A stretch of 64,000 nucleotides of DNA from a virus, in the IMG/VR virus record IMGVR_UViG_3300022926_000007, positions 17,747 through 81,746 of that record; one strand, given 5' to 3'. A model generated the notes under the pieces. It was not told the DNA's origin, did no database searches, and saw only the letters and a list, made by a program, of their open reading frames with translations. Numbering within the stretch: the stretch's first letter is position 1; each line of letters opens with the position of its first letter. Position numbers and translations under genes: made by a program. Below are positions 7,832-37,204 of this stretch, in pieces.

Positions 7832-9417
7832 TACGTTGCCAATGCGATTGCTCTTAAATCTGTTACTCTTGGTGGATAAGCAGGATTAGTTCCTGTCATT
7901 ACCATTTTAATTGCAAATGATGTAAACTCTCCAAGACCATCTACAGTAAATTTTTGTTCATTGTAACTTGTATTATATTCTGGACTATAAGGCGTTTGTG
8001 AACGACTTTCAGAATAATTAATTGTATCGTCTGCTAAACCTGTTGAATTAAAGTAAACATAAGGAATTTCATCAAAAGGTCTACTATCATCAACATGTCT
8101 AATTTTAAATAACATTTTAATATTAGATGTAGGATAATTGTTTGCACTTATTCTAACATCTAATGCTGTTGCTGGGTTATCTAATAAAATTTCTTTTGTA
8201 ATATATTTTGCAGCTGCACTTCCGCCAGTTGCTGATGTTTCATCTACAAAATCTGTTGTGTTTGAATTATTAGGATCATCTAAACGATTTGTAATTAAAA
8301 TCATATTTGCTCTAGCTAAATCAATAACAGGAGAAATATTTTCGTGTTGTGTTGACATTTCAAATTTATATGTTAGTGATTTATTTCCAGCAAAATGAGT
8401 TGTTTCATTTATAGGTGAAGCAACTTGTTGTTGTTCAGTTATATAAAAATTATCATTTGGAACAACTTCATTTTCGGTTTGAGCTACATAAGATGTTTCA
8501 CTGCCGTGTATAGATTGTTTTGAAATTGTTGTAAGTCTATGTGTTACTGAAGTATCTCCAGGATGCATAAACCCTATTTGAGGTTGTACAACTTCAAATG
8601 CGATATTTCTTGTAGCAGTAACAGATGAGCCACCAACACTTCCTGTTGAAGTTGCTGAGTCACCAGATATTGTAATTGTATAACTATCTAAAGTTACATT
8701 TCCAATATCATGCGTACCATTGATAGCACTTCCTAAAATACCGTTATAGTCTGTACCATCAGTTAAACCAGCAATTGTAACTTTATCTGGTTTATCGTCA
8801 TTCATACCGTGATTTGGGTGATTAATTTTTACAATAGAAGGATTTGAACCAAATGTTGATCCAGATCCTGCTGTTTTATTAGTTTCAATAGGATTATTTT
8901 CTAAAGTTTCAGCAGTTAAAGCTGAGTTATTAAATGTTACAGTACCAGTTGTGTTTGTTGTAAAGTTTGCTTTTTTTATTGAGAATTTAATGTCTTGTAG
9001 AGGTGACTCGTTTTGTCCACCTACGTTTTGTGATTTAAATAAAGAGCCAACTGCAGGTTGTTCCGAAACTCGTCTTGAGCCTCCAATAACTGTTTGTCCT
9101 AATTCAGAAACATATAAAACATATTTTGTACTATTTGCTGTTATACCAATAGCATAACTTATACCACCCTTTAAAAATACTGGTGAATCAAAAGTAAATG
9201 TTGTAGCTGTTGTACCATCAGTTGATGTGTTTACATCAGCGGCCGCTTTTGTGACTACACTAAATGGTAATATTTTTGAACCAGGTCTATCTCTATAAGT
9301 TTCTAATAGAGCAACATTAATAGGCTGAATCGTATCTTTTTCACTAAAATATAAGTCTAGTGATGTTACAAAACACCCTTCTTCTACCTGATTTACAAAT
9401 GTTTGAGCTATTGCCAT
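7831..9417 (-). CDS. Virion structural protein, equivalent to the C-terminal part of DUF4815/VrlC-like proteins
   Basis: Starts AIAQTF...GCFVTSLDLYF, contains SLFKSQN and DIKF, ends PRVTDLRAIALA, as at the C-terminus of marine T4-like VrlC-like proteins. Confidence 0.7.
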   Translation of the reverse strand: MAIAQTFVNQVEEGCFVTSLDLYFSEKDTIQPINVALLETYRDRPGSKILPFSVVTKAAADVNTSTDGTTATTFTFDSPVFLKGGISYAIGITANSTKYVLYVSELGQTVIGGSRRVSEQPAVGSLFKSQNVGGQNESPLQDIKFSIKKANFTTNTTGTVTFNNSALTAETLENNPIETNKTAGSGSTFGSNPSIVKINHPNHGMNDDKPDKVTIAGLTDGTDYNGILGSAINGTHDIGNVTLDSYTITISGDSATSTGSVGGSSVTATRNIAFEVVQPQIGFMHPGDTSVTHRLTTISKQSIHGSETSYVAQTENEVVPNDNFYITEQQQVASPINETTHFAGNKSLTYKFEMSTQHENISPVIDLARANMILITNRLDDPNNSNTTDFVDETSATGGSAAAKYITKEILLDNPATALDVRISANNYPTSNIKMLFKIRHVDDSRPFDEIPYVYFNSTGLADDTINYSESRSQTPYSPEYNTSYNEQKFTVDGLGEFTSFAIKMVMTGTNPAYPPRVTDLRAIALAT

Positions 9418-12400
9418 TATATTGTTCCTCTAGTTTTATTTATTCTATTTTTTTTTATTTTTCCAATCACACGACAAATTGGTTTACCTATATTGTGTAA
9501 TAGACTTCCAATAATTGTTTTCTCACCCGCAAGATATTTTGCCCAATGTGGAACTAAATGTTTTGTAAAGAAGAACGCAATTTTACCAATTTTTGTATTT
9601 GATTTCATTTCTTCAATTAATGGATAAGCCCAAGCGTGATAACCTATCATCAATTCTGGATCATTTAACATAGCCCATTTACCATATTCTTCGTCAAGTT
9701 CCCATAATCGTTTATCTAATAATCCAAGTTCATAGATATAATCACAAAGAACCTTACCACCAGAAGAGCCTTTATTGTGTACTACATATCCGTCAGCGAT
9801 GTATGAATTATCATTTGAAACATTAAAGTTATATAAAGGCAATTGAGGATTGTTGATTACTTTTGAATTAATACTAGTAATTTCAACTAAACCATTGTTT
9901 GTTACAAGTTTATCACCAACTTTTAATTCACCTTTTAATTGTTCATAAAGTTCTACACCATCACGTTCTTTTGTTTTTTCTGGTTTAATAGATTTCCAAC
10001 CTTCTTCTGTCATAAATGGGTGTTCAGAAGTAAAGAAGTAATGTTCATTATCATTAAATGAGTATAATTTTCTTTCAGCCAATAAAGTAGGATCTAATTT
10101 AATAACTGTGTTTTCTTCTTTGTATCCTTTTACTTTATCGCCAACTACAACATCTTCAATATTTTTAAATGTGCCATCAGCCATTGAAACTTTAGTACCT
10201 GCTATGAAACAACTACCACCAATACCAGCTTTATTATCTTTTATAGCTTGAGCAGTTTTTGCTCTTTCTGCATTTCTTTCTTTTAAATCTGAATAAGTTC
10301 TAACATTTGGATCATTATCATCTGGATCTATCCTATCTGGAAGACCATCTTTATCTCTATCTTCCCATCCACCACTATCATTATTATCTGTTCCTCTATT
10401 TGAACCAGAAGATGAACCACCTGAAGAATAAGTTGTTGATGAAGTAATTTCTCTTACAGAATTTTCTTCTAATAGTTTTGTTTCTATAACATCTGGAACA
10501 CGAGTTGCATAAACTGTTTCTTGTTCTGTTACTAACAATCCTTGTGCTCTATATTTTGTAGAAGCAAATGATTCATTATTTCTACCTGTTCTAAAGTTTG
10601 ACTGTGAGTCTGTAATTTTAAATACTCTTTCTCCACATCTCCATTTTGGATTACCACTTACAGATGGATTTGGAATAGCAAATGTTCCTGAAAGTGAACC
10701 ATTAGCATCAGATGTTAATTGTCCACCTAAAGAACCTCCAGTAGGTGTTACATATGAATCAACATCTACATCTTCAAAATAAGCATAATGTTTAGATAAA
10801 GGTTTTAACCCCGTTACTGTAAATGAAATTGTTTTAGACCTGATATAGGGTACATAAGATAAATCAACAAGTCTTTCTCCAAATGATTGTTGAACTACTT
10901 GTGATGATAATTCTCTCTTTAATCCTGAACGTGTAGCACTACCTGTTCTTCCTTCTTTAACAGTTGTTTGATTACCACTATGTGTTTTTTCTATAAATGT
11001 TCCTGTCCAGTTATTTTGCCATTCATTCCATACTGTTCCTGTTCGGTGAGATGGATTTGGAATATCTTTGATACTATTATAAAGTAAATCATTATTTACA
11101 ACTAAATCTGGAGATGTTTTTGTATCTTTCCATTCATCAAATTCAGGTGTGATTTTCATATTTCCAACATATGTAAAAACATTAAATGGATTTACATTTA
11201 CTGTTGTTGTAGCACTTAAATTAGAAACCAATTCTACTTCCGTGTAAGGTAAGGTAATTAAGTCACCTGTTTTTTGATAACCAGCAGCTGTTCTAGCTGT
11301 ATCATTTGTTGCTGTTTCTATCAAAGAAACTTGATCTGTAAAACATCTTGGTCTTACAACACCATTTTCTAAATCCATAGAACATTGATAATCTGAATTT
11401 GTAGTATCTCCTACATTATGACCTTTAAAAGTATCTACTAAAAATCCATTTTTAAATCTGTTAAAACCATTAGCGTCTTGTATTTCTAAATTTAATGTTT
11501 CTTGTTCTAATAAAGATAAACTTGTATAATACTCTAAATTTTTAATTCTACTTTCTAACTTACCAATATCTCTCATTGTATATCTTCTATTATCTACAGG
11601 AATGACTGTAACATCACTTGTACTAAAAGTATATGCAGGTAATCTCAAATAACATAGAATAATAGAGTTATCAATTGTATCAGGTCTTTGAGGATCAACA
11701 GCCGAAGCACCTCTTGCTTGTTTAAACTGGCCACTTGTTGTCATATAGATTGCATCTATACGAGAGAGATAAAATTCAAAATCTGCTCTAAAATTTGATC
11801 CTGGTTTTGGAATATCTACTGAAACAGCATTCGTACCAGTAAAGTTTTTAGCACCTGTTGCATCTTTATCATTGTATCCTATAACATTACTATCATCTGC
11901 AACTCTTGGTCTAAAATCAACACACTCTCTTAACTCTAATGTTTCTCCTTTATTTTCAGATTTAAATGTAGGAATATTTGTATAATCAATCGCATAACTA
12001 TCTACACTAAAATAATCTCCAGCGCCGTGTGTAAAGTAATCAAAATTAATTAATAATTGTCCAGTAGGTACTTGAGAACCTGACTTTAATTTAAGTCTAC
12101 CTAAATCATAAAAATTATCTCTTTGACCATTGTCCAAATCAAATCTATCAGTTATGTTTGTATGTGAAGTAGTAGCAGCAGTTGCAAAATCTGGAGACAT
12201 ATAAACAGAATTTAATTGATAAATGTCTGCCTTACCTAAAGATATTATTGAATTTGTTGCTGTTGCTTCTGTTGTAATACTTGTTGTAGCGCCTGAAACT
12301 AAAGTTTTTAATTTTTCTACTGCAACATTTCTAACTATTGTTGCTGTAAATTTAACTTCAGAGTTTCCATAGTTTGAACCCAAGTCAATAGTTAACTGAT

Positions 12401-14978
12401 TTGAATTACCTGATAATGAAAATATTGTATTACCTTCGTGGTTATTTCCTGATAAAGAAGTTATTTCACCAACTTCACCTGATGATGAACCTGCAGTTAT
12501 ATGCATTAACGCATAATCTCCTGAAGATAACGAAGCAAAAGTTTCATTTGAACCTGCATTAAAAATACCAATACCATCACCTGTTAGAGTCGTAACAAAT
12601 TGTCTTCTAACGGTAAATGATGTGTCAGTTAATCCGTTGTTTGTAGCAGTTTTTAAAGTTTTAATAACTTTTTCTGGTAATTTATAAACTAAAGTATTGT
12701 TTGTTGTTTCTTGTAATTTTGTTCTTCTTCTTTCAACTGGTGAGGCCGTTGTAACATCAGAACCACCTACAGCGGCAGATAATGTTAAACTTGTATCACT
12801 TACAATTGCTAATACAGTAGCAGTTAATTCTTCTCCAGTATTATCAGTAAATACAATTGTGTCCCCACTTATTAATTCTGTTGTAAATTTTGTTCCTTGA
12901 CCAATAACATCAGCACTACTATTTGCTACACTAATAGTTCCTGTTAAAGTATATTGTGAATCATCTGTTGAAGATGTTGCATTACTTGTTAATACTGTAT
13001 CTGCTGTAAACGCTGGTGTATTAGCTTGATAAATTTGTTTTACATTTTTAAAATCATATACAATAACAGATTTAAAATAATTTGTATCTGTAGTTATGAC
13101 TGCTGTATTACTTGAAGTAGCACCTGTAATTGTATCACCAGCAGTAAAAGTTCCACTTTTGTTTGATATAACTACGATACCATTTTGAGCTGTTCCACCT
13201 GAAGTGTAACCACTAAATCCTGAAGTATCAGTAGCAATTGTAAATTCGCTAGCACCTGTAACAATAATTTCATATGTGTTACCATTTACTTCAGTCATAC
13301 CACCAACGCTGTCAAAAGTAACATTTTGTCCTGTTGATAAATTGTGTGATGATGATGTTGTAACAGTTAATAAAACTGCTGATGTTGCCACCATATTTGA
13401 AATAGCAGCTGTAACTGAAGTCGAAGCGGCCTCTACAATACCACTTGCGCCTGATACATTTGTTACAGTTTCACCTGTTGTAAGTGAATGTGCTAATTTT
13501 GTTCTTAAATGTGTAAATGCTGTAATATTAAATAAACCTAATTTATAATTTGATGTAGTATTAGATGATGACGCACCAACTGTACCTGAATTGTATTCAA
13601 AAAATCTAGGATGTGCTACACCTATTTGATGTATGTCAGTACCTACGCCACTATTTGCTGAACCACGTGAAGAAGTCGCTTCTTTATATAAAGATACTTC
13701 TTTATAAGCTTCTGTATCACCAGCAACTGTATCTACATCTGGCGATCCATAAATGTTTGAAACTTCTACAAAATTACCTAACGCTAATCCAGTTGTAGAA
13801 TTATTAACTGTTTTAAAATCTCTGGACTTATCTATTGTAACATATTTTGTAGCTATAGTTTCTAACTCATAACCTTGAACATATGCTTTACCTGATCCTA
13901 ATCCAATAGCTAATCTTGCTTTTGATTCTTCAGCTGTTAAATCAAATTCGTAACGTGGATCTAATACTGTTCCTACTCTTGTTGTATCTGGTCTATAAAT
14001 ACCTCTTTCATATTGAGATATAGTTGAGTCAAAATGATGTTCTCTTACATCAATGTCAAAATTTCTTACAACATAGTTTCCTGATTCATCAAATGTTCTA
14101 CGAGCAAGTGTGTCAGCAATTAAACTATAATCTGTTTTTATAACTTTTGTAATTAAGTTACCATTATCAATTCTTAATAATTCTATAAAGTCATCATCTT
14201 CAGTAGATGTTAAATCTTTTTTAGCAAGTGTTAATGTAATTTTAAATCTATGAGCGCCTGGTGCATTTACATTTGAAGAACCTTGAGCGTTATCATTTAA
14301 AGAGGTATCATCTGAAGGTGTAATTAAACTTTCTGTAATTGTAAATCCAACTTTAAAACTAGGGTTTACAAAATAAGGTTCTAATATTATTGTTTGTGCT
14401 TCATTTTGTACAAAAAATCCATTTACATAATAAATTCCAGCTTCTACTCTCACAGCAGATCCAGTTCCTACTGCATTTGAGTCAATAGGTAATGCTACTC
14501 CATTTGTACCTACTGTAGCAGTTTCACCACCATCTCCTGTTAAAGTTTCTGTACTAACAAATCTATTAATAACTCCAGCACTAGCACCTGTACTTGCTGT
14601 TTTTGTATAGTTGACAAATATTGTTGCGGCTTCTGTATCAGTAGCAGCAGTTGCATTTATAACTTCAGCAACTACACCATTCGTGTCACCTGTAAAAATT
14701 GTACCAATTAAATCAGATACATTTGAAGTTGAAAATGTTGAAAGTTTAACGAAATGATAAGTGTTTATATATTGTATTTCACCAGGAATAACTTGAGCGC
14801 CATCTTTAAATATGTGATCTCCAAATCTTTTAATTTGATTTTGAAGTATTGATTGTACTTGAGTTAATTCTCTTGCTTGAACAGCAAATCCAGGACGAAA
14901 TAAAATTTTATGAAATCTTTTTGACTCTAAATAATCATCAAAGTACGGACTAATATTAAAATCAGTTTTTGTGGCCAT
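9417..14978 (-). CDS. Large virion/baseplate protein (DUF4815/VrlC-like N-part) with C-terminal Hint domain
   Basis: PYFDDY...LFRPGFAVQARELTQVQSILQNQI, LARRTFDESGNYVV, RRYTMRDIGKLE. Hint domain from CFIAGT to VVHN. Confidence 0.85.
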   Translation of the reverse strand: MATKTDFNISPYFDDYLESKRFHKILFRPGFAVQARELTQVQSILQNQIKRFGDHIFKDGAQVIPGEIQYINTYHFVKLSTFSTSNVSDLIGTIFTGDTNGVVAEVINATAATDTEAATIFVNYTKTASTGASAGVINRFVSTETLTGDGGETATVGTNGVALPIDSNAVGTGSAVRVEAGIYYVNGFFVQNEAQTIILEPYFVNPSFKVGFTITESLITPSDDTSLNDNAQGSSNVNAPGAHRFKITLTLAKKDLTSTEDDDFIELLRIDNGNLITKVIKTDYSLIADTLARRTFDESGNYVVRNFDIDVREHHFDSTISQYERGIYRPDTTRVGTVLDPRYEFDLTAEESKARLAIGLGSGKAYVQGYELETIATKYVTIDKSRDFKTVNNSTTGLALGNFVEVSNIYGSPDVDTVAGDTEAYKEVSLYKEATSSRGSANSGVGTDIHQIGVAHPRFFEYNSGTVGASSSNTTSNYKLGLFNITAFTHLRTKLAHSLTTGETVTNVSGASGIVEAASTSVTAAISNMVATSAVLLTVTTSSSHNLSTGQNVTFDSVGGMTEVNGNTYEIIVTGASEFTIATDTSGFSGYTSGGTAQNGIVVISNKSGTFTAGDTITGATSSNTAVITTDTNYFKSVIVYDFKNVKQIYQANTPAFTADTVLTSNATSSTDDSQYTLTGTISVANSSADVIGQGTKFTTELISGDTIVFTDNTGEELTATVLAIVSDTSLTLSAAVGGSDVTTASPVERRRTKLQETTNNTLVYKLPEKVIKTLKTATNNGLTDTSFTVRRQFVTTLTGDGIGIFNAGSNETFASLSSGDYALMHITAGSSSGEVGEITSLSGNNHEGNTIFSLSGNSNQLTIDLGSNYGNSEVKFTATIVRNVAVEKLKTLVSGATTSITTEATATNSIISLGKADIYQLNSVYMSPDFATAATTSHTNITDRFDLDNGQRDNFYDLGRLKLKSGSQVPTGQLLINFDYFTHGAGDYFSVDSYAIDYTNIPTFKSENKGETLELRECVDFRPRVADDSNVIGYNDKDATGAKNFTGTNAVSVDIPKPGSNFRADFEFYLSRIDAIYMTTSGQFKQARGASAVDPQRPDTIDNSIILCYLRLPAYTFSTSDVTVIPVDNRRYTMRDIGKLESRIKNLEYYTSLSLLEQETLNLEIQDANGFNRFKNGFLVDTFKGHNVGDTTNSDYQCSMDLENGVVRPRCFTDQVSLIETATNDTARTAAGYQKTGDLITLPYTEVELVSNLSATTTVNVNPFNVFTYVGNMKITPEFDEWKDTKTSPDLVVNNDLLYNSIKDIPNPSHRTGTVWNEWQNNWTGTFIEKTHSGNQTTVKEGRTGSATRSGLKRELSSQVVQQSFGERLVDLSYVPYIRSKTISFTVTGLKPLSKHYAYFEDVDVDSYVTPTGGSLGGQLTSDANGSLSGTFAIPNPSVSGNPKWRCGERVFKITDSQSNFRTGRNNESFASTKYRAQGLLVTEQETVYATRVPDVIETKLLEENSVREITSSTTYSSGGSSSGSNRGTDNNDSGGWEDRDKDGLPDRIDPDDNDPNVRTYSDLKERNAERAKTAQAIKDNKAGIGGSCFIAGTKVSMADGTFKNIEDVVVGDKVKGYKEENTVIKLDPTLLAERKLYSFNDNEHYFFTSEHPFMTEEGWKSIKPEKTKERDGVELYEQLKGELKVGDKLVTNNGLVEITSINSKVINNPQLPLYNFNVSNDNSYIADGYVVHNKGSSGGKVLCDYIYELGLLDKRLWELDEEYGKWAMLNDPELMIGYHAWAYPLIEEMKSNTKIGKIAFFFTKHLVPHWAKYLAGEKTIIGSLLHNIGKPICRVIGKIKKNRINKTRGTI
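9774..10211 (-). other. Hint (intein-like/BIL) autoprocessing domain, 146 aa, no endonuclease
   Basis: Block A CFIAGTKV, block B TSEHPF, blocks F/G LYNFNV...YIADGYVVHN. The +1 residue is Lys. Confidence 0.9.
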
Positions 14979-25771: not shown

Positions 25772-25848
25772 GCAGACGTAGCTCAATTGGTTAGAGCGCT
25801 GGTTTGTGGAACCAGAGGTTGATTGTTCGATTCAATCCGTCTGTACCA
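25772..25848 (+). tRNA. tRNA-His (GUG), CCA encoded, no G-1, A73
   Basis: Acceptor stem GCAGACG/CGTCTGT, D arm GCTC/GAGC, anticodon arm CTGGT-TTGTGGA-ACCAG, T arm GATTG-TTCGATT-CAATC, ACCA end. Confidence 0.93.
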
Positions 25849-26300: not shown

Positions 26301-26780
26301 TTAAAATTTTGATAAGAAGTTTGCGATTTGTTTGACAAATGGAAGTAATGTAAACGCCATTATCAAATTTACACCAGTATGTGCTAAAGCGATATGTCTT
26401 GTAATTCCTTGTGGTATTCCATCAGATACTAAAAATCCAGCAATCCATATTGTACCTGTTGTACCTATGTTTGCCCCTAATACGGCGGCTATGGCCGCTG
26501 GTAATGGAACGGCACCAGAGGCAACAAGAGCTATGATTGCTGTCGTTGATAGTGATGATGATTGCCAAAGTAATGTCATAATGATACCACCAAAAAACAT
26601 ATAAACTGTATTGTGTGTAAAATAAGATAAGTGATCTAAATTACCCATTGATTTCATTCCACCTGAAAACATTTTCAAACCAATATAAAATACCACTAGA
26701 CCTACAAGGGTAGTGATTATAGGATTCCCTAATTCCATTTCTTTGACCTTTTTGATTAGTTTTTTAAATGAAGACCTCAT
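26301..26780 (-). CDS. Na+/Pi cotransporter family (NptA/SLC34-like), single-repeat protein
   Basis: QSSS motif (WQSSSLST), GANIGTT and ALAH...N, with several TM segments. Confidence 0.82.
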   Translation of the reverse strand: MRSSFKKLIKKVKEMELGNPIITTLVGLVVFYIGLKMFSGGMKSMGNLDHLSYFTHNTVYMFFGGIIMTLLWQSSSLSTTAIIALVASGAVPLPAAIAAVLGANIGTTGTIWIAGFLVSDGIPQGITRHIALAHTGVNLIMAFTLLPFVKQIANFLSKF

Positions 26781-26828
26781 CTAAAAAATATTTAGAACTA
26801 GAAAAGTGATTGTAACAAAAGTTTAATA

Positions 26829-28115
26829 CTATTGTATGATAAGGTAAATACTACTATCCGTTGTAAGTTTTTTGGATGTAAAGTAATTAAACTTCATATG
26901 ATTTTCAAAAGACTTTGGTTTCATTAAAAAAGAATACATATAACTCATTAAGTTGGCAAATCTATCTTGTACTAGTTTGTCACCTCTTTTAAACAATCGT
27001 ATGGCCTCATCATAGTTTTCAATTGTATTTGACAATCGTTTATACTTACTAAACATTTCTTTTAATTCTCTTTGTGCTACACTATAACTTGATTGATTTA
27101 CACCACCACCTCTTAATTTGTAATTATATTCTTCATCTACATATTTTGTATAAGCCTTAGCATCAACGGCGCCTGTTTGAAAACCAGCACCAATAAAACG
27201 GCCTTCTAATGAAACGTTTAATGTAGTAGCACTTGCCTTAAAACCCACACGAACAGCAAAACCAGATTTAGTTATAACAATAAAATTATTAAAACTTTCT
27301 GATAAATCCACTCTATCAAACTTTAAATCTAAATCTAACTTTTGTGTCATTAATTTACTCGGGTCAATAATAGAAGAAGTTGCTCTTGGCTTTTCTACTT
27401 GTTTAAGTGAAATAGGAATAACATCTCTTTTTTTAAAGGCCTTTGTTAATTCACCATTTAACTCATTGGCCGATTTAGAATTTAATAAAGGTTTCATATT
27501 ATAATTTTTACGTATCATCCATACATCACCTGGATTCCAGTTATCATCTAATTTACCCGTTAACCCACGAGCTAGTTTATATAACTCATTGGTCATTGGA
27601 CCTTTTTGTCTTTCGTAATGATAACCTTTTTTTAGTTTATACTTTTTTAATTCATTTAATTGCTTTAAAGCACTTTCATAATAAAAACTATCAAACAATG
27701 TTTCATACACACCTTTAATTTTTCCCACCATTGATTTAACTTGTTCCTCTTTTAAAGTACGGCCTGTTTCAATATAACTTTCAAATAGATGCATTGATAC
27801 TAATTCTTTTATTTCAGTCAATACATTGGTTTTTGATTTGGCGTTGGCCGTATAGTGATTAAATGAACCGTTAATAGAACTTTCAGATCCTTCAATTAAC
27901 ACAATCTTATTTTTACTATCTTTAAGTACAATGGATTTATTGCCTTTGGCCAATTCTATAAACTTATTGGCCTTAACTTTTCTACGTATAATTAAAAACA
28001 CAGATTTACCTGGCACATAACCCTCTTTTTTAAACAAGGCACTATTTACAGGCTTATCTTTTAATATAACTCTATGGTTTTCACCATACTTTTTATTTTC
28101 TACGATTGACGCCAT
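26829..28115 (-). CDS. PD-(D/E)xK restriction-endonuclease-like protein
   Basis: E...DNWNPGDVW...IPISLK (PD...SxK variant). Late promoter at 28139-28146. Confidence 0.6.
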   Translation of the reverse strand: MASIVENKKYGENHRVILKDKPVNSALFKKEGYVPGKSVFLIIRRKVKANKFIELAKGNKSIVLKDSKNKIVLIEGSESSINGSFNHYTANAKSKTNVLTEIKELVSMHLFESYIETGRTLKEEQVKSMVGKIKGVYETLFDSFYYESALKQLNELKKYKLKKGYHYERQKGPMTNELYKLARGLTGKLDDNWNPGDVWMIRKNYNMKPLLNSKSANELNGELTKAFKKRDVIPISLKQVEKPRATSSIIDPSKLMTQKLDLDLKFDRVDLSESFNNFIVITKSGFAVRVGFKASATTLNVSLEGRFIGAGFQTGAVDAKAYTKYVDEEYNYKLRGGGVNQSSYSVAQRELKEMFSKYKRLSNTIENYDEAIRLFKRGDKLVQDRFANLMSYMYSFLMKPKSFENHMKFNYFTSKKLTTDSSIYLIIQ

Positions 28116-28191
28116 AATTCTCTCTCTTTATACTTCAATATTTATAGAATGGCAAGAGATTTTTTCCGAGTTTCCGGTGGTTAAGTGGCCT

Positions 28192-28455
28192 CTAAGGCTT
28201 AATTCTTAATAGTATCTTTTTAATGTTTTCATACCAGAATATACCACTTTGTCGTAGTTTATTGTTAGAACTACGTAACTTCTCCAGACTATTACGTAAC
28301 CGTGTAACTTGTGCCTTTGTAAGTCGTTTATCATTTTGTTGTAAATGTTCTAACTTTTCTATTATATCATCTATTTGAATACAAGTGTAATCAGGTATCT
28401 TTGGTGCCTTCTTTTTTAGATAAGGTAGAGTAAAACTCTTAGGCCATTTTGCCAT
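28192..28455 (-). CDS. Hypothetical protein
   Basis: AAGGA RBS, coiled-coil. Confidence 0.6.
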   Translation of the reverse strand: MAKWPKSFTLPYLKKKAPKIPDYTCIQIDDIIEKLEHLQQNDKRLTKAQVTRLRNSLEKLRSSNNKLRQSGIFWYENIKKILLRIKP

Positions 28456-28804
28456 AGTAGTATGTCCTTTGTAAGTAACAGGCCAGTTGTTAAGGGGAAT
28501 GTAGAATAATATTACTTTAATATTTAGGAGATAAAGTCGTCTTCCTACGTGTATTTTTATCCGAGGGGTTTTTTCTATAAAAGGAAGTGTATTAAGTTGT
28601 CTAGCTGGACTCTAAGCTTTTCCTGATGGTTCAACACCACTATGTATAAGATATAGAAACTCTACAAGGTGGCCATTTAAATATGGCCTCCAATATATCT
28701 ATTAACATCTTTATTACATTTATAGTTTAGCAAGCCGCTCCAGTTTGCATAAGCACTTTTCCACCACAGGTTTTCGAGCCATAAAAAACACGGCCATATA
28801 TAAG

Positions 28805-29707
28805 CTAAGGGTTTAAGTCTATTGTAGAGCCTGTATGTATTACTGCTCCAGTTGTGTTACTTGTCTTTGTACCACTTATGGTTTCTGTTTTATTACCTGC
28901 TACGGCCACGTTTAGATTGCCGTTTATCTTTAAGTCGTAGTCGCCGTTAACTATGACATCTTTGTCGCCTTGTATATAGACCTTGTTGTCGTTGGTGATT
29001 AAGATGTACTTGTCGTTTTTTATTATTTCAATGGTATCACCGTTTGCTGTCATTTCAATAGAAGTGCCTGACTTGTGACGTAGGTGTATTCGTTCTTTGG
29101 TGTCCGTATCATCAAATTCCATTATATGGCCAGACTCACTTTCGTAAACGTGATTGTATGGATAAACGGCCGCATAATCAATTTCAGGTTGTGACCAAGT
29201 ATTATTTACTCCTACAATATTGGTAATCCTATCGGCCTTTCGTGTCGTCAATGACGCTGCCTCTTTGTCTGGATTATTAACGGCCAACCTATTGGTATCT
29301 GGCTCATCTACCTCTCGTGGATAGACCGACTTTGTTTCGTCATCTGGCCTTGGATTTGGGTCATTAAACCCCTTATTTGGATTTCCCAATAAAGACGGCC
29401 TGCCAGGTAAACTACCTAACACTATAGGCTCTTGTAAGTCTTCATCTCTAAAATATCCAAACACCCAACTACCTTCAACAAAGGCCGAAGGTGATTGGCC
29501 AATTCCTGATATGCCGGCTGATGTAGTAGGTAACAAACAAGTTGCCCAAGGTAAATCGGCCGTTGGTAATTTAATCTTGTCTTGTGTATGATAACCAATA
29601 CAACGTACACGCACACGGCCAGTGTATTGAGGGTCTTGCCTGTCTTCAACTACGCCATTGAACCAGATGAAACCGTTACGGCCTAGAAAATTTTTGTCTG
29701 TAATCAT
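28805..29707 (-). CDS. gp5: Baseplate central spike gp5 (OB fold + beta-helix, no lysozyme domain)
   Basis: WFNGVVEDRQDP...GRVRVRCIGYH, LPWA, YPYNHVYESESGH..EFDDT...ERI, ends IDLNP. Confidence 0.92.
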   Translation of the reverse strand: MITDKNFLGRNGFIWFNGVVEDRQDPQYTGRVRVRCIGYHTQDKIKLPTADLPWATCLLPTTSAGISGIGQSPSAFVEGSWVFGYFRDEDLQEPIVLGSLPGRPSLLGNPNKGFNDPNPRPDDETKSVYPREVDEPDTNRLAVNNPDKEAASLTTRKADRITNIVGVNNTWSQPEIDYAAVYPYNHVYESESGHIMEFDDTDTKERIHLRHKSGTSIEMTANGDTIEIIKNDKYILITNDNKVYIQGDKDVIVNGDYDLKINGNLNVAVAGNKTETISGTKTSNTTGAVIHTGSTIDLNP

Positions 29708-29754
29708 TTTTATTTTTACCGATAATTGTCGCCTTTTAATTCACTCACTATACG

Positions 29755-30003
29755 CTATTTTAACCTATTTCTTCGTACTGTACGCAAATGGCCTATTCTA
29801 TTACTTATACCACTTATAAGGCCTCGTATATACCCAAACCCTTGTCCCATATAGAAACAGGCAGTCGCCAGACTGACTTTAGCTTCGTGGCCTTCTAGTT
29901 TACCCTTGTAGAACCTCATATATTGTCTTCTATCATATTCCTCTATCAGTCTATCGGAGAGGTGGCCGTATGAAGTTCTTATCTTGTTATATAATTTGTT
30001 CAT
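29755..30003 (-). CDS. Hypothetical protein
   Basis: 82-aa ORF inside the compositionally atypical GGCC-rich segment. Confidence 0.4.
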   Translation of the reverse strand: MNKLYNKIRTSYGHLSDRLIEEYDRRQYMRFYKGKLEGHEAKVSLATACFYMGQGFGYIRGLISGISNRIGHLRTVRRNRLK

Positions 30004-30129
30004 TGTCTTTATTTACTTGCCTTTCACTTTCATTTGTGTTATATTGTAGGCCATATACTCATATGTTGATTGGTGGCCTGCTCCACAGCGCTCGGAAGCG
30101 TCGGAAACTCTCTTATTCTCTATACCTCT

Positions 30130-31632
30130 CTAAAATCCATCTCCTATACTCTCGTTGTAATAGTTTTGATCTATTTCGTAGATGTTTTCTACTTTTCTTG
30201 TAAAATCCTTTAATGTAGGTGTAAATTCTGTGGTTTCGGCAACAAACTCGGTGTTTACACTATCTTTCATACACTTTAGTACCATTTCGTGTCTTAATAG
30301 TGTTGGATTAATAATATGTTTTACTGCCATTACCAAGTATCGGCCAGAATAAAAAGGATTAGACTCTTGTGTGTCGCCTTCTTCTATAAGTGGTCGCATA
30401 AGAGGTATATCAAAGGTAATGACATCTCCGGCGTTGATGGCAGTATTACCAAACACTTGTAGAGATAGATTAATATTGTTCATAGCCAGTCTTTGTGAGT
30501 TCTTTTGTTGTACTGTGACTTTTGGATCTATAATTTCATAATCATTGTGTATTTTACTTGTGTTTGACTCAACCATTACTCTGGCGTCTGAATGTTGTCC
30601 AAAGTCTTTTCTTGTATCTTCGTATGGGTGTATAGGTAGTACGCCCTTAAATCTTGCCTTTTCACCGCCACTATCAAATTCTAAATGAAAATGGTTTTTA
30701 AAGTCTGCAAAGTAGTCATAGTTCTTTTCTTCGTATGTCTTGTAAAATGTGTCGTGTGTAAACAATTTAGAGGCATATAAACCCTTGTTGACATTTTCTA
30801 ACATATTGACTGGTCGTTCAAACTCGTACTTAATCACACCTTTCATATCCATTTCTACATCTTTTACGTTCTTGTCTGTATTTGAGTTGGCAATTTGATA
30901 ATAGTAATTAAACTTAATAGGTCGTGGCATATTACCACCCGAAGCAATCATTGACTCTAAACTTCTAAAGTGATAACCGTCTGTTGTTTCGTAAAAGAAA
31001 TAACCTGCGTTGTTGTATTTCTGTGATATGGCGTCTTTGCCTAATAGTTGTATTGCTCTAAAAGGTTTAAAATTAGGTACAACAATCTTTGTGTTGGTGT
31101 TTGTGGGTTCAATAAAAAATCTTTTTTTAGAGTTTAGATATAATGGGTCACGTAATATTGAGTTTACGCCGTTCTCTACTGGTCCTGCGTACGCCTGACT
31201 GACTCTTGTAATACTGTTTCTGTACGCCTCTGGCGAACAAAATAATATTCTATACCGTTGTGCTCTAGGATTGGTTTGATCTACTTCTACTTTTTCTATT
31301 TTGTATATCTGAAATGGAAAACCCTCACCTCTTACATTGTTATAGCCTGGCAGACCTGGAGTATTAAATTTAAGTTCTAACTTTTCTAAACCTGTTATTG
31401 GCAGTATTGTTCGTATATCTTGTGCATCATATACTGTTACTGAACCAAGTATTGAATTGCTTAATATGTCTTCTTTTAATTCTAAAAATTGTATAACACC
31501 ACCAGACACTAAATCCATCTCATAGTTTACACCTTCCTCATCATTACGTCTATAAGATAGTATATTACAAATTTCTAAATTGTAATCACCGGCCTGTTCT
31601 ATAATATTAGGATTCTTTTCATCAACTGCCAT
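30130..31632 (-). CDS. Baseplate hub protein (gp27-like)
   Basis: Lies between gp53 and gp5. FFYETTDGYHFRSLE, V.GNT...AGD, SGRYLV..VKH. Confidence 0.7.
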   Translation of the reverse strand: MAVDEKNPNIIEQAGDYNLEICNILSYRRNDEEGVNYEMDLVSGGVIQFLELKEDILSNSILGSVTVYDAQDIRTILPITGLEKLELKFNTPGLPGYNNVRGEGFPFQIYKIEKVEVDQTNPRAQRYRILFCSPEAYRNSITRVSQAYAGPVENGVNSILRDPLYLNSKKRFFIEPTNTNTKIVVPNFKPFRAIQLLGKDAISQKYNNAGYFFYETTDGYHFRSLESMIASGGNMPRPIKFNYYYQIANSNTDKNVKDVEMDMKGVIKYEFERPVNMLENVNKGLYASKLFTHDTFYKTYEEKNYDYFADFKNHFHLEFDSGGEKARFKGVLPIHPYEDTRKDFGQHSDARVMVESNTSKIHNDYEIIDPKVTVQQKNSQRLAMNNINLSLQVFGNTAINAGDVITFDIPLMRPLIEEGDTQESNPFYSGRYLVMAVKHIINPTLLRHEMVLKCMKDSVNTEFVAETTEFTPTLKDFTRKVENIYEIDQNYYNESIGDGF

Positions 31633-31633
31633 T

Positions 31634-32170
31634 TTATACTCTAACTAGTTTTTCAAATTCTGTTTCAAATGCTCTTAAAAAACCTGGTTTTAATAATTTA
31701 ATTTGTCTTTTCTTATCTTGTAATCTTTGTTCGTATTCATAATTAGTGACAGCAACTGCTCCTGGTTGTGTGCTATTGACTTCTATTAAATAATCATAGT
31801 CATCAGGACCATTTGATGTTGTTGTACCACTTGATTGTGTTATTTCATAATGATGAATACCACTCGGGTTGGCATATTTGTCTTTTACATATGACTCAAA
31901 TGCTTGATATGATAACGGCCAGTCATAGTATCTATCTTTTATATTATTCAATAATAGTATAACATAATAATATCTAACTGATCCATATATCTTGTAGGCA
32001 ATTGTTTCAGGTGAATCACCACTATCTACATCATATTTGTCAAATAATTCGACATTATCTCTAATTGACTCTTTTACTTTAACTCGTCTTAATATATCTG
32101 TTACAAGTTTATAGTTCTTTGTGTTGTCTATGTCGTATAGTATTTTAGGAAACTTTTCAAAATATGCCAT
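31634..32170 (-). CDS. gp53: Baseplate wedge gp53
   Basis: YFEKFP.I.Y, PETIAYKIYG, ILLLNNI.D.YYDWPL, HHYE. Confidence 0.92.
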   Translation of the reverse strand: MAYFEKFPKILYDIDNTKNYKLVTDILRRVKVKESIRDNVELFDKYDVDSGDSPETIAYKIYGSVRYYYVILLLNNIKDRYYDWPLSYQAFESYVKDKYANPSGIHHYEITQSSGTTTSNGPDDYDYLIEVNSTQPGAVAVTNYEYEQRLQDKKRQIKLLKPGFLRAFETEFEKLVRV

Positions 32171-33315
32171 TAGTGACCTCTTTCAATATCTGATTTAGTA
32201 ATAAATGTAGTTTCTTTAAACGCTAAAGTTAAATTTGTCTGTACAGGCGGAGCACCCTTTATAGTTTCTCCTAAACCTGTATTCATAATGTATTCATTAA
32301 ACGAGCTAAACTTACCTTCAGGTCCATATGTTACGTCCATAGTTTCTAATACACTTCTTGTAATTTTATTTAAAAAATCGTTTATATTATTTTTGTAATA
32401 ATAAAATATTTCAAATTCTGAAGGCACTTTAAAAACTCTTCCACCTACAGATGAAGCGTCATAGCCTGGATGCATATGATATTTAAATAACCATATAATG
32501 TTATGTACCATTTCCATTTCATCTTCACTTTTAGGGAAAAATGTAAATGTATAATTAAATGATCTAAAATTTGGTTTATTAAAAAATTGTTCTTCGTGTG
32601 GGTTAATAGCAATACCTAATGCCTTTGAACCTAATTTTACAGGATCACCTATTGAAGCATTACCAAATAAATCACCAACTGCTTTACCCAATTCAGTAGC
32701 CGCACCACCTACAGCACCACCAGCTAATGTTTTAAATTTTTCAAAAGCGCCTGTAGCGTTTTTAGCTTCACCTATAGTTCCTAATAATTGTCCTGATAAG
32801 TCTGTAGGTTCTGTATCATATGTCATTCCATAACTAACTTTAACTCCTGGAGGTAAATACAATGCGATAGCACCTGTTGATACGCTATGTGTTGGAAATT
32901 TTGATATTACACTATTGTTTGATTTTAGAGATCCTGGATTTACACCTTGTTGATTAACCCTTAAATCTTTTATTTCTGGATCACCTGTATCTCTACCGCC
33001 TCCTCCACGACCAATAATTGGTTTTGCCAAACCCACTCTAGCCGCCATTACTTTGTCACTAGAAGTACCACTACCAAAATTATTTGATATACAATAAAAT
33101 ATAACATAGTGACCTAAACCCTCACTACCAATATCTAATGGATATCTTAATCCAGCAAATTTCAATGGATCTTTTTTCATTGATTCTTGTATTGAATCTG
33201 TAATTTCTGTTGCTGATGTATTTGTAATAGAATCAACAAATTTACCTGTAGAATTATTAGATTTAGAATTTAATAATCTATTAGCTCTAAATTGTTGTAG
33301 TGGTATGTTCGCCAT
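32170..33315 (-). CDS. gp48: Baseplate tail-tube cap gp48
   Basis: LRYPLD, IALYLP, INP..EQFF..PNFRSFNYTFTFFPKS..E, LAFKE. Confidence 0.85.
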   Translation of the reverse strand: MANIPLQQFRANRLLNSKSNNSTGKFVDSITNTSATEITDSIQESMKKDPLKFAGLRYPLDIGSEGLGHYVIFYCISNNFGSGTSSDKVMAARVGLAKPIIGRGGGGRDTGDPEIKDLRVNQQGVNPGSLKSNNSVISKFPTHSVSTGAIALYLPPGVKVSYGMTYDTEPTDLSGQLLGTIGEAKNATGAFEKFKTLAGGAVGGAATELGKAVGDLFGNASIGDPVKLGSKALGIAINPHEEQFFNKPNFRSFNYTFTFFPKSEDEMEMVHNIIWLFKYHMHPGYDASSVGGRVFKVPSEFEIFYYYKNNINDFLNKITRSVLETMDVTYGPEGKFSSFNEYIMNTGLGETIKGAPPVQTNLTLAFKETTFITKSDIERGH

Positions 33316-35979: not shown

Positions 35980-36309
35980 TTATTTCTTATCTGATTTTGC
36001 TCTACTACCTGTGTATAGACCAAACCAAGCCGCTCCAGCACCAACTACGATTGATACTAAGCCTGATTGTTCCATAGTAGGACTTGATAAATTCATATAC
36101 CAAATTACTACTTTATATAATAGATAAATGTATGTAGATATAAACACTCTTGGAAATATTCTCCAACTATCTACTGCTCTTGCCAAATGAATTAATTTAG
36201 CGTATGGATTAGGTCCTAAATCTTTTACAGATGTGTCAACTTCTAATTCTACGTTTACTTTTTTTGATACCTCTTTTTTATCAGATGGTACTGTAATACT
36301 CTCTTCCAT
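35980..36309 (-). CDS. Two-TM membrane protein
   Basis: DSWRIFPR, QSGLVSIVVGAGAAWFGLY. Confidence 0.7.
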   Translation of the reverse strand: MEESITVPSDKKEVSKKVNVELEVDTSVKDLGPNPYAKLIHLARAVDSWRIFPRVFISTYIYLLYKVVIWYMNLSSPTMEQSGLVSIVVGAGAAWFGLYTGSRAKSDKK

Positions 36310-36494
36310 TACTTCATCTCCCTTTTTCTTTTATCACGCTCTTCTTTTAGATGAGCGACCAACAGATTGATATACACCTCCCTCTCCCAAGGCAACATAT
36401 TTTCTAACTCCGTCAATGAATATTTATGATGTTGCATCAAAGCAAAGTTAGTTTCAAAATAGTTTTGTAAACTATCGTGTGAGAGGGCTATCCG
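36309..36494 (-). CDS. gp51-like baseplate assembly protein, probably reached by -1 frameshift from gp26
   Basis: The -1 frame reads RIALSHDSLQNYFETNFALMQHHKYSLTELENMLPWEREVYINLL... The internal ATG at 36437 has no RBS. Confidence 0.8.
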   Translation of the reverse strand, partial: RIALSHDSLQNYFETNFALMQHHKYSLTELENMLPWEREVYINLLVAHLKEERDKRKREMK

Positions 36495-37204
36495 AAAAAA
36501 TCGTATAATCCTTCCAATGTTACCTTACTTTTAACATTGGTCTTTGGATTTACAACTTCTACCTCTTTTGTCAATTTAGGTGCCGTATCATAAAATCTCT
36601 TAATTTTATTTAATATTTGAGCATCTAAATTTTCTAAAAATTCGTTCATCTCCTCTTTAGTGTAATCAGAACCAGTATATGTTTTTTCACCATAATATAT
36701 TGTATCAATACCTCTTGCCATTATATTAAATAAGTCTGCTGTATCGGCCGCTGTTAAGTCTTTAATTTCCTCAACATCATCAATACTAGGATATCTTAAA
36801 AATATTCCTATTTTCTTATCTTTATCAATAACAATCTCATTTGAATGTTCTTCATCAACTTGAACCTCTATTTTAGTTAAGTCAATATCAACATCAGCAT
36901 AAGTTTCATTGTCATCAGGACATAATACTTTTAATTTTGAAATCTCACCTACTGACTTTGCTCGTATTTGTAAAAATACATATTCAAGGTCAAATAGTGG
37001 AGAGTTTTCTACATCAATAGTATTAAATGTACAAGATTTTACAATATCTTTTACAGCACGAATAAGTGCTTGTTGTCCACCATCTTCTAAAGCCAATAAT
37101 AAAACTTTTTCTTCTTTTACTAAAAAAGGTCTATATTCTATTTTTTGATCTTTAGAGGGAAGTGTCAACTCATATCTTGGCGCCTCAATTTTTGGTAAAG
37201 CCAT
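36488..37204 (-). CDS. gp26: Baseplate hub assembly chaperone gp26
   Basis: MALPKI..P.YEL.LPS, YRPFLVKEEK.LL.A, IRAKSVGE, ends GLYDFFG. Confidence 0.92.
   Translation of the reverse strand: MALPKIEAPRYELTLPSKDQKIEYRPFLVKEEKVLLLALEDGGQQALIRAVKDIVKSCTFNTIDVENSPLFDLEYVFLQIRAKSVGEISKLKVLCPDDNETYADVDIDLTKIEVQVDEEHSNEIVIDKDKKIGIFLRYPSIDDVEEIKDLTAADTADLFNIMARGIDTIYYGEKTYTGSDYTKEEMNEFLENLDAQILNKIKRFYDTAPKLTKEVEVVNPKTNVKSKVTLEGLYDFFG

Follow-up and report, generated by a model that had tools for sequence, protein, structure and literature searches.

The DNA analyzed here (the window) is a 64-kb part of an 81.7-kb viral contig from IMG/VR whose CheckV completeness is 58%. Around its gp5 gene, which encodes the baseplate central spike, about 30 copies of the 4-bp word GGCC are packed into roughly 3 kb (27003-30078), and we found this to be a real, selected, conserved but dispensable cis-acting array of DNA sites, present in a clade of pelagimyophage-like T4-type phages. 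A first-pass annotation of the window had noticed the densest part of the cluster and proposed a methylation-gated replication origin or packaging (pac) site overlaid on a structural gene. The genes and features of the locus are as follows (ORF, open reading frame).

26829-28115, minus strand: 428-aa protein, phrog_1462 (unknown function)
27003-28190, no strand: downstream shoulder of the array, nine further GGCC sites, in the 428-aa ORF and the gap that follows
28192-28455, minus strand: 87-aa ORF
28442-30078, no strand: array core, 1.64 kb with 23 sites, covering gp5, the 82-aa ORF and three noncoding gaps
28456-28804, no strand: noncoding gap of 349 nt downstream of gp5, four GGCC sites (28481, 28671, 28685, 28792)
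28805-29707, minus strand: gp5, baseplate central spike, 300 aa, 12 GGCC sites (Gp5_OB, 2.2e-27; phrog_430, 3.1e-88)
29755-30003, minus strand: 82-aa ORF lying between gp5 and the hub-like gene, four GGCC sites, no family match
30130-31632, minus strand: 500-aa hub-like tail protein
31634-32170, minus strand: gp53
32170-33315, minus strand: gp48, tail-tube cap

The gp5 protein consists of an OB domain and a C-terminal beta-helix, without the lysozyme domain. Judged by gp5, the closest cultured relative, and the only close one, is Pelagibacter phage Mosig, at 46.6% protein identity. The two genes share 73% nucleotide identity over 385 nt, and nowhere in the region other than gp5 are there nucleotide-level matches to distant phages.

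The GGCC array in the window

GGCC occurs 115 times in the window, against 45.7±7.0 times in 100 dinucleotide shuffles, the largest of which reached 66. Exactly 23 sites fall within 28442-30078, the number counted by the first-pass annotation; all 21 positions that it listed were confirmed, and the remaining two are 28904 and 29820. For 28440-30110 the expectation is 2.5 sites from base content and 3.65 from a first-order model, a local enrichment of 6- to 9-fold. A second-order model gives 16.9, which is circular because most of the local GGC and GCC triplets are themselves part of GGCC. No other of the 256 tetranucleotides is as enriched in this interval relative to the rest of the window, and the 5.5-kb gene chosen earlier as a reference (9417-14978, minus strand, 1853 aa) indeed holds four sites.

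The core cluster stood as first described, but the true array is wider, extending over about 27003-30078. When the whole contig was divided into 500-nt bins, those within 27755-30254 held 4 to 8 sites each and every other bin held three at most, and on a 4-kb grid a single bin held 33 sites compared with 1 to 10 in the others. Such a sharp peak rules out a broad gradient along the genome. Outside the cluster GGCC is mildly overrepresented, with 92 sites against about 42 expected (about 2-fold). The G+C content is 0.405 in 29001-30000 and 0.27 to 0.35 elsewhere; 11 of the 23 core sites lie outside gp5, some of them in DNA with a G+C content of 0.31.

Little additional structure was found in the arrangement of the sites. 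No extended consensus surrounds GGCC beyond the general avoidance of GGG and CCC, and this avoidance (G precedes only 3 to 5% of GGC words) is why the sites lack a preceding G and a following C. The spacing list revealed no clear period, and the recurrent distances in it reflect shared ancestry. The inverted repeat GGCCAT-N6-ATGGCC reported earlier was found at 28671-28688. Two short inverted motifs that were said to bracket the region, GAGTTTCCG at 28168 and CGGAAACTC at 30102, both exist; as a bracket, however, they are at chance level. Inverted pairs of 9 bp are common in this region (10 in 28000-30300, compared with 4.1±2.6 in mononucleotide shuffles), and this pair is therefore evidence of nothing.

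The coding sequence of gp5 allowed the array to be separated from the protein it overlies. We permuted synonymous codons within gp5, which preserves both the protein and the codon use of the gene, for 17 of the 81 loci described below (the window, 12 other GGCC-rich loci and four purged ones). In the window, gp5 contains 12 sites against 4.1±1.4 in the shuffles, about a 3-fold excess, and none of 500 shuffles reached 12; enrichment thus survived the codon-shuffled model under which the first-pass annotation had allowed that it might disappear. The 12 other rich relatives behaved alike: for none of them did any of 500 shuffles reach the observed count. GGCC is used at 12 of the 20 permissive dipeptides in gp5, compared with 105 of 1278 over the 96 ORFs of the contig (about 8%). 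The neighboring ORFs of the array use it at 4 of 8 (82-aa ORF), 8 of 21 (428-aa ORF) and 1 of 4 (87-aa ORF) such dipeptides, and the next three genes upstream at 2 of 20, 1 of 7 and 0 of 28. Across the relatives, the gp5 sites take the frames GGC/C (344 sites), G/GCC (321) and NGG/CCN (30), where the slash marks the codon boundary, and nearly all of them make use of a silent third position. The array is therefore a selected DNA-level signal and not a side effect of composition or coding; the earlier proposal that the signal acts at the DNA level, overlies a structural gene and spans coding and noncoding DNA is borne out by the codon shuffles and by the 11 of 23 sites outside gp5.

Conservation and purging of the array among relatives

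Searching IMG/VR with gp5 yielded 314 confirmed relatives; we kept the best 80, which together with the window make up 81 loci. By the number of GGCC sites in gp5, with cutoffs of our own choosing, these were classed as rich (at least 9), mid (5 to 8) or poor (at most 4). The density proved bimodal, with 47 rich, 23 poor and 11 mid loci. For the protein tree and for the column and promoter counts, the 72 complete gp5 genes were reduced to 59 sequences by dereplication at 95% nucleotide identity; the nine loci whose gp5 is truncated were excluded, and Mosig (L001), whose gp5 is on the other strand of its locus, was treated separately.

The array is conserved in this clade, and the orthologous region of relatives, from which it might have been missing had it been peculiar to the window, does contain it. 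Rich loci carry on average 11.4 GGCC/kb in gp5, 6 to 8/kb in the 500 nt upstream and 5 to 6/kb in the 500 nt downstream, where the G+C content is an ordinary 0.33, and the density drops to 1 to 2/kb by about 1.5 kb from gp5. This shoulder decays alike whatever gene lies beside gp5. Sites of the rich class are both held and turned over, since in the 35 dereplicated rich sequences 75 alignment columns are used, yet four columns hold a site in 26 to 34 of the 35; these four are shared across lineages at 45 to 50% protein identity. Rich pairs at 60 to 70% nucleotide identity retained 42% of their GGCC sites compared with 21% of other same-frame tetranucleotides, an imperfect control given that conserved Gly and Ala residues underlie the sites. 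Mosig, whose complete genome is 141 kb, contains 120 GGCC, about what its composition predicts; its richest 1.5-kb windows lie over gp5, and its array is intermediate. Our literature search, of limited coverage, found no description of a GGCC array.

On the protein tree of the 59 sequences the rich state runs throughout, and the poor state arises by six changes, at least five of them forced by well-supported branches. The nearest relatives of the window itself (L003 to L005, 69 to 75% identity) are purged. How the loss proceeds can be read from L075 (12 sites) and L079 (no site), which are 87% identical in nucleotides: 11 of the 12 losses are by silent changes, typically GGC CGT to GGC AGA, ACG GCC to ACT GCC and CTG GCC to CTG GCG. 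The far flanks of purged lineages also have fewer sites (0.6 GGCC/kb, compared with 1.4 in rich lineages). Cultured phage HTVC008M has 22 GGCC genome-wide against 96.5 expected and none in gp5, and the Synechococcus myoviruses Syn19 and S-RIM2 have none in 12.3 kb each, where 17 to 18 would be expected in each. The purges and these three phages indicate that GGCC-directed counterselection operates in the phage family and can erase the array fast.

What survives the purging is a patch rich in G+C and in GGC and GCC triplets. The G+C content of gp5 is 0.40 to 0.45 in all relatives, including the purged ones, against 0.30 to 0.36 in the flanks. GGC makes up 42 to 44% of the Gly codons and GCC 38 to 44% of the Ala codons in gp5, and the high share is kept after purging. 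Together the two triplets occur over gp5 at 33/kb in purged and 41/kb in rich lineages, compared with 7 to 16/kb in the far flanks, and the adjacent 250 nt are also high. Relative to codon shuffles, the tetranucleotide with the top excess in purged lineages is GGCG/CGCC, at a mean of 13.6 against 7.5 expected. This word was then tested locus by locus in 38 of the 59 dereplicated sequences: none of 500 shuffles reached the observed count in 7 of 15 purged sequences, which represent three of five independent purged clades, and the excess is absent from L062 and from clade C, whose codon use already predicts high counts. Of the 23 sequences in the comparison set, which includes the mid loci L061 and L045 (five sites each), only L018 has more GGCG/CGCC than expected, the other 22 being at or below expectation. 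Direct conversion of sites accounts for only part of this excess (2 of the 12 sites in L079). We suggest that selection may act on dense G+C or on the presence of GGC in both strands, GGCC being the compact form where restriction permits it.

Restriction-site avoidance in phages offers a familiar parallel to the purged lineages, in that HTVC008M, Syn19, S-RIM2 and L079 lose GGCC. The phage of the window, in contrast, accumulates the same word locally, which ordinary avoidance does not explain. As a side observation, different lineages seem to avoid different 4-bp palindromes. GATC is absent from the flanks of several rich lineages (L009, L011, L013, L026 and others) and present at 1.5 to 2.7/kb in purged flanks, and it is the most depleted tetranucleotide in rich gp5 (0.6 against 3.7 expected).

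Candidate readers of the sites and neighboring elements

The GATC clusters of Escherichia coli oriC and of the phage P1 pac site are read through Dam methylation. The GGCC array resembles them as a dense local cluster of a 4-bp palindromic methyltransferase target, far above the genome-wide density. It differs in being 10 to 20 times longer, in lying over a structural gene, in having been purged repeatedly and in having no match to a cognate methyltransferase in the contig. The search for a GGCC cytosine methyltransferase, which the first-pass annotation had suggested, came back empty: C5, N4/N6 and Dam-type families (PF00145, PF01555, PF02086) matched nothing in the contig (81.7 kb, 58% complete). 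The deposited annotations of Mosig and HTVC008M list no cytosine methyltransferase, these two genomes not having been searched anew. In passages of Seong et al. 2022 (PMC9516812), GGCC is among the methylated motifs found by SMRT sequencing only in marine viral genomes, and SAR11 genomes are reported to be without restriction-modification systems; excerpts of PMC7029224 give one such system in more than 100 SAR11 genomes and contain no mention of methyltransferases or origins in pelagimyophages.

The 428-aa neighbor of gp5 was tested as a reader of the sites because HaeIII cuts GGCC: in a protein-language-model search the cluster nearest to it, among those bearing Pfam families, has 24% RE_HaeIII members, at a score of 0.85, below the 0.9 line of the tool. 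This candidate was dropped, as it has no RE_HaeIII match, no PDB match and no co-occurrence with the rich state. None of 50 diverse members of the family (361 close members, 173 representatives) matched RE_HaeIII (PF09556) or any restriction-enzyme family at E≤0.01, and the 428-aa query itself gave nothing at E≤10. Nor was there a match in profile searches of PDB sequences, NCBIfam or PADLOC. Its AlphaFold2 model (pLDDT 94) retrieved no PDB chain with Foldseek at E≤0.001, and the model resembles only uncharacterized proteins of cyanomyoviruses and Campylobacter T4-like phages. The residues T100, E104, D197 and S236-L237-K238 are invariant in the family, and by our own reading D197 with S236-L237-K238 could be a variant nuclease motif. 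The gene adjoins gp5 in five loci, namely the window and L002 (rich) and L012, L015 and L060 (purged). Weak partial matches occur in three more purged loci; most other loci are without it, many of them with more than 2 kb of downstream DNA, and it is absent from Mosig and HTVC008M. A scan of genome contigs found it on one 2.7-kb contig of a metagenome-assembled genome only. The protein belongs to a widespread family of T4-like marine phages, and several contigs of 120 to 207 kb encode close homologues. A six-frame search of the contig with PF09556 pointed to a single place (36192-36563, minus strand; 19 bits against a cutoff of 25, with nine stops inside), which is most likely noise and could be a decayed RE_HaeIII remnant; the same search with PF09561 found none.

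Three further elements lie close to gp5.

29708-29790, minus strand: conserved leader 5' of the gp5 start, TTGCGTA ... AAATxGCGTAT ... ATTAAAAG ... TATCGG
About 28715-28730, minus strand, in the gap 28456-28804: T4-late-promoter-like CTATAAATG, conserved in relatives
28681-28697 and 30040-30056, no strand: arms of a 17-nt inverted repeat with GGCC, 94% complementary and 1342 nt apart

The leader is common to rich and purged lineages; an alignment of the 135 nt upstream of gp5 (A1; the window and 31 relatives) has 15 invariant columns. It carries repeated TGCGTA and GCGTAT words, and part of it coincides with the end of the small ORF upstream. In 52 loci we counted 136 copies of TACGCA/TGCGTA within 300 nt upstream of gp5, where 4.3 would be expected (32-fold). 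No covariation support was found for an RNA fold in the leader. Downstream of gp5, CTATAAATG(T/C)AATAA is conserved 50 to 90 nt past the stop codon in most relatives, and 5' of it stands a conserved AGAAAA-[GGCC/GCGC/CGCC]-ATT, whose 4-bp center varies among lineages and which holds the GGCC that survives in many purged ones. The arms of the 17-nt repeat are in the two noncoding gaps that flank gp5 and the 82-aa ORF.

Homologues of the 82-aa ORF lie upstream of gp5 in seven relatives (L002, L006, L019, L037, L044, L054 and L066). No Rfam match at E≤1 was found in 27000-31000 and no tRNA in the gap 28456-28804, the only tRNA of the window being a tRNA-His at 25772-25848. In a 159-aa ORF (26301-26780, minus strand) the match to the Na+/Pi cotransporter family (PF02690, 8.5e-16) is confined to the first part of that family, and the ORF may represent a phosphate-transport gene carried by the phage, either truncated or short. 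The stretch is found in 20 sequencing runs, all represented by Logan contigs. The DNA runs among them are without exception labeled as salt marsh metagenomes, and 13 may come from the source samples themselves. Four RNA libraries gave contigs over parts of gp5 at low depth, which by themselves show neither transcription nor its direction.

Comparison with T4 oriE and possible roles of the array

The T4 RefSeq record (NC_000866) places the replication origin oriE at 79355, within gene 5 (77959-79686), with a primer RNA complementary to the gene 5 transcript, and annotates repEA and repEB antisense inside the same gene. Exactly at the annotated oriE point we found TTGATG-17-TATAAT with an extended -10 element on the antisense strand. 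In the passages of Kreuzer and Brister 2010 (PMC3016281) that deal with these matters, oriE depends on an early promoter, several T4 origins are near switches of the transcribed strand, T4 has at least five concurrent origins as well as recombination-dependent replication, and no link of the 12-nt "iterons" of oriE to origin activity is established. These iterons appear to be 24-nt periodic repeats that encode the beta-helix of gp5. Switches of the transcribed strand in the window are at about 23.9 and 25.9 kb.

By position, and by position only, oriE is the closest known analogue of the array. It lies in the same gene and the same module region (gp53, hub, gp5), it is likewise a DNA-level feature superimposed on the central-spike coding sequence, and T4 origins are individually dispensable by our reading of passages of PMC3016281, as the array is. 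The origin part of the first-pass proposal has thus gained a positional precedent, and nothing points to a pac site. A promoter-like match may add a further likeness. An antisense TTGACT/TTGCCT/TTGCCA-17-TATAAT (at least 10 of 12 matching) occurs at one alignment position of gp5 in 38 of the 59 relatives, compared with 14.7 expected from codon shuffles. It lies at the start of the beta-helix part (alignment columns about 820 to 870, for example in L041, L026 and L018, and not in the window), and by BLASTP alignment it is about 28 residues (about 85 nt) from the position of the T4 promoter. Over the whole of gp5 there are 62 antisense promoter matches against 29.7 expected, and 10 on the sense strand.

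Starting from the array as observed, its selection at the DNA level, its conservation, its purging and its position, we infer a replication role and the kind of factor that would read the sites. The reading that we rank first, with a probability of roughly 0.35, is that the array acts as a local, nonessential initiation zone for replication or recombination of the oriE kind. In position the array would correspond to T4 oriE, an origin within gene 5 whose firing starts from an antisense early promoter. In an otherwise A+T-rich genome, a dense G+C-rich patch would be the target of a factor that recognizes GGC on both strands, with GGCC as the most compact form of two-strand GGC, and lineages under GGCC-directed restriction would purge the palindrome, survive and keep the GGC/GCC-rich island. 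We propose that such purging would be survivable because T4-type phages have redundant origins and recombination-dependent replication. A bolder and improbable version holds that pelagimyophage-like phages possess a conserved origin or recombination-initiation zone in gp5, positionally homologous to T4 oriE, that consists of strand-symmetric GGC triplets (not iterons) in silent positions and can be respelled under restriction (GGCC to GGCG/CGCC and so on) without loss of function.

Several results weigh against a replication role. The array has been purged independently at least five to six times and is dispensable, since viable relatives, including HTVC008M with its empty gp5, have repeatedly done without it. 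T4 gene 5 itself has no enrichment of GGCC or GGC/GCC, and since moreover its iterons appear to be beta-helix repeats, the link to T4 is positional only. The short-gp5 clade of the window lacks a good antisense promoter: the plus strand within gp5 offers only 9-of-12 matches, and the sigma-70-type matches of the window region (19 in total, compared with 15.9±4.4 in shuffles) are not in excess. In the relatives the antisense promoter overlaps the conserved peptide GDHYT...GKSQA, so that a quarter of codon shuffles also yield it, and the rows counted are related and not independent. We found no iteron-like repeats in 26800-30200, only two-copy families and two trivial tandem repeats. The GC-skew check suggested earlier gave no origin signature in either the window or Mosig, where skew follows the direction of transcription. 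An antisense RNA over gp5 would be C-rich (skew of -0.12), which does not favor a persistent R-loop, and no protein able to read GGCC sites was identified.

Among the other explanations, the likeliest, although we still consider it doubtful, is that the array binds a phage-encoded DNA-binding protein with a role outside replication, such as the timing of baseplate transcription, genome organization or packaging. GGCC or two-strand GGC would then be the recognition core, and many short palindromes clustered within 2 to 3 kb resemble, by our own comparison, known protein-loading arrays. The TGCGTA/TACGCA cluster just upstream of gp5, in rich and purged lineages alike, and the conserved late-promoter-like CTATAAATG just downstream would fit such a regulatory region. 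Against this, no candidate protein was found, the 428-aa neighbor is not supported as the reader and is next to gp5 in only five loci (two rich, three purged), and no consensus extends beyond GGCC apart from the avoidance of GGG and CCC. Methylation, the reading of the first-pass annotation, is in our view a less probable account, in which a GGCC methyltransferase of phage or host marks the array, the methylation state of which would control replication, packaging or transcription. What is clustered so densely is a 4-bp palindrome, a classical target of methyltransferases and restriction enzymes. The mild genome-wide excess of GGCC would agree with this reading, as would the SMRT report of GGCC methylation in marine viral genomes. 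The lack of a methyltransferase match in the incomplete contig and in the two deposited annotations speaks against it. A strict GGCC gate is also at odds with the repeated purging in viable relatives, and the purged lineages keep the GGC/GCC island and gain the nonpalindromic GGCG/CGCC, which a GGCC methylase could not read.

A nonfunctional origin of the sites, to which we give about as little credence as to methylation, supposes that the gp5 region, the best-conserved DNA in its module, recombines often between coinfecting relatives and that a very-short-patch type of repair or gene conversion favors GGCC. This would agree with the decay of enrichment with distance from gp5 whichever gene lies there, with the enrichment in flanks of ordinary G+C content, with the roughly 2-fold genome-wide excess and with gp5 alone having nucleotide-level matches to distant phages. 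However, the four site columns are held across lineages at 45 to 50% protein identity, and the deamination words GGTC and GACC are not clearly depleted in rich gp5 (7.1/kb, compared with 5.0 in purged). No Vsr-like or methyltransferase gene turned up, no search for Vsr (PF03852) having been made, and a bias specific to GGCC leaves the surviving GGC/GCC island of purged lineages unexplained. Finally, gp5 is richer in G+C than its flanks and is rich in Gly and Ala encoded largely by GGC and GCC, so that GGCC might rise by chance. We give this idea hardly any credence and regard it as excluded: codon shuffles that preserve both properties yield 4.1±1.4 sites and not 12, purged relatives with the same G+C content and codon use have 0 to 4, and half of the sites lie outside gp5, some at a G+C content of 0.31.

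Pelagimyophages infect SAR11, which count among the sea's most numerous bacteria, and to our knowledge nothing is known of how these phages start replication. Where selection overrides codon choice over 3 kb for the sake of about 30 copies of a 4-bp word, it marks a functional DNA element invisible to gene annotation. Since relatives either keep the array or have erased it by silent changes, natural recoded controls exist, and both Mosig, with its intermediate array, and the purged HTVC008M were isolated on HTCC1062. The repeated purging is a clean natural case of conflict between a cis element and restriction avoidance. Should the array turn out to be an origin in the position of T4 oriE, the long-standing question of what defines oriE would become a comparative problem. 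Were the GGC-triplet version also true, the array would be a cis element whose "alphabet" evolves under host defense, and the gene 5 origin would predate the split between enterobacterial and SAR11 T4-like phages.

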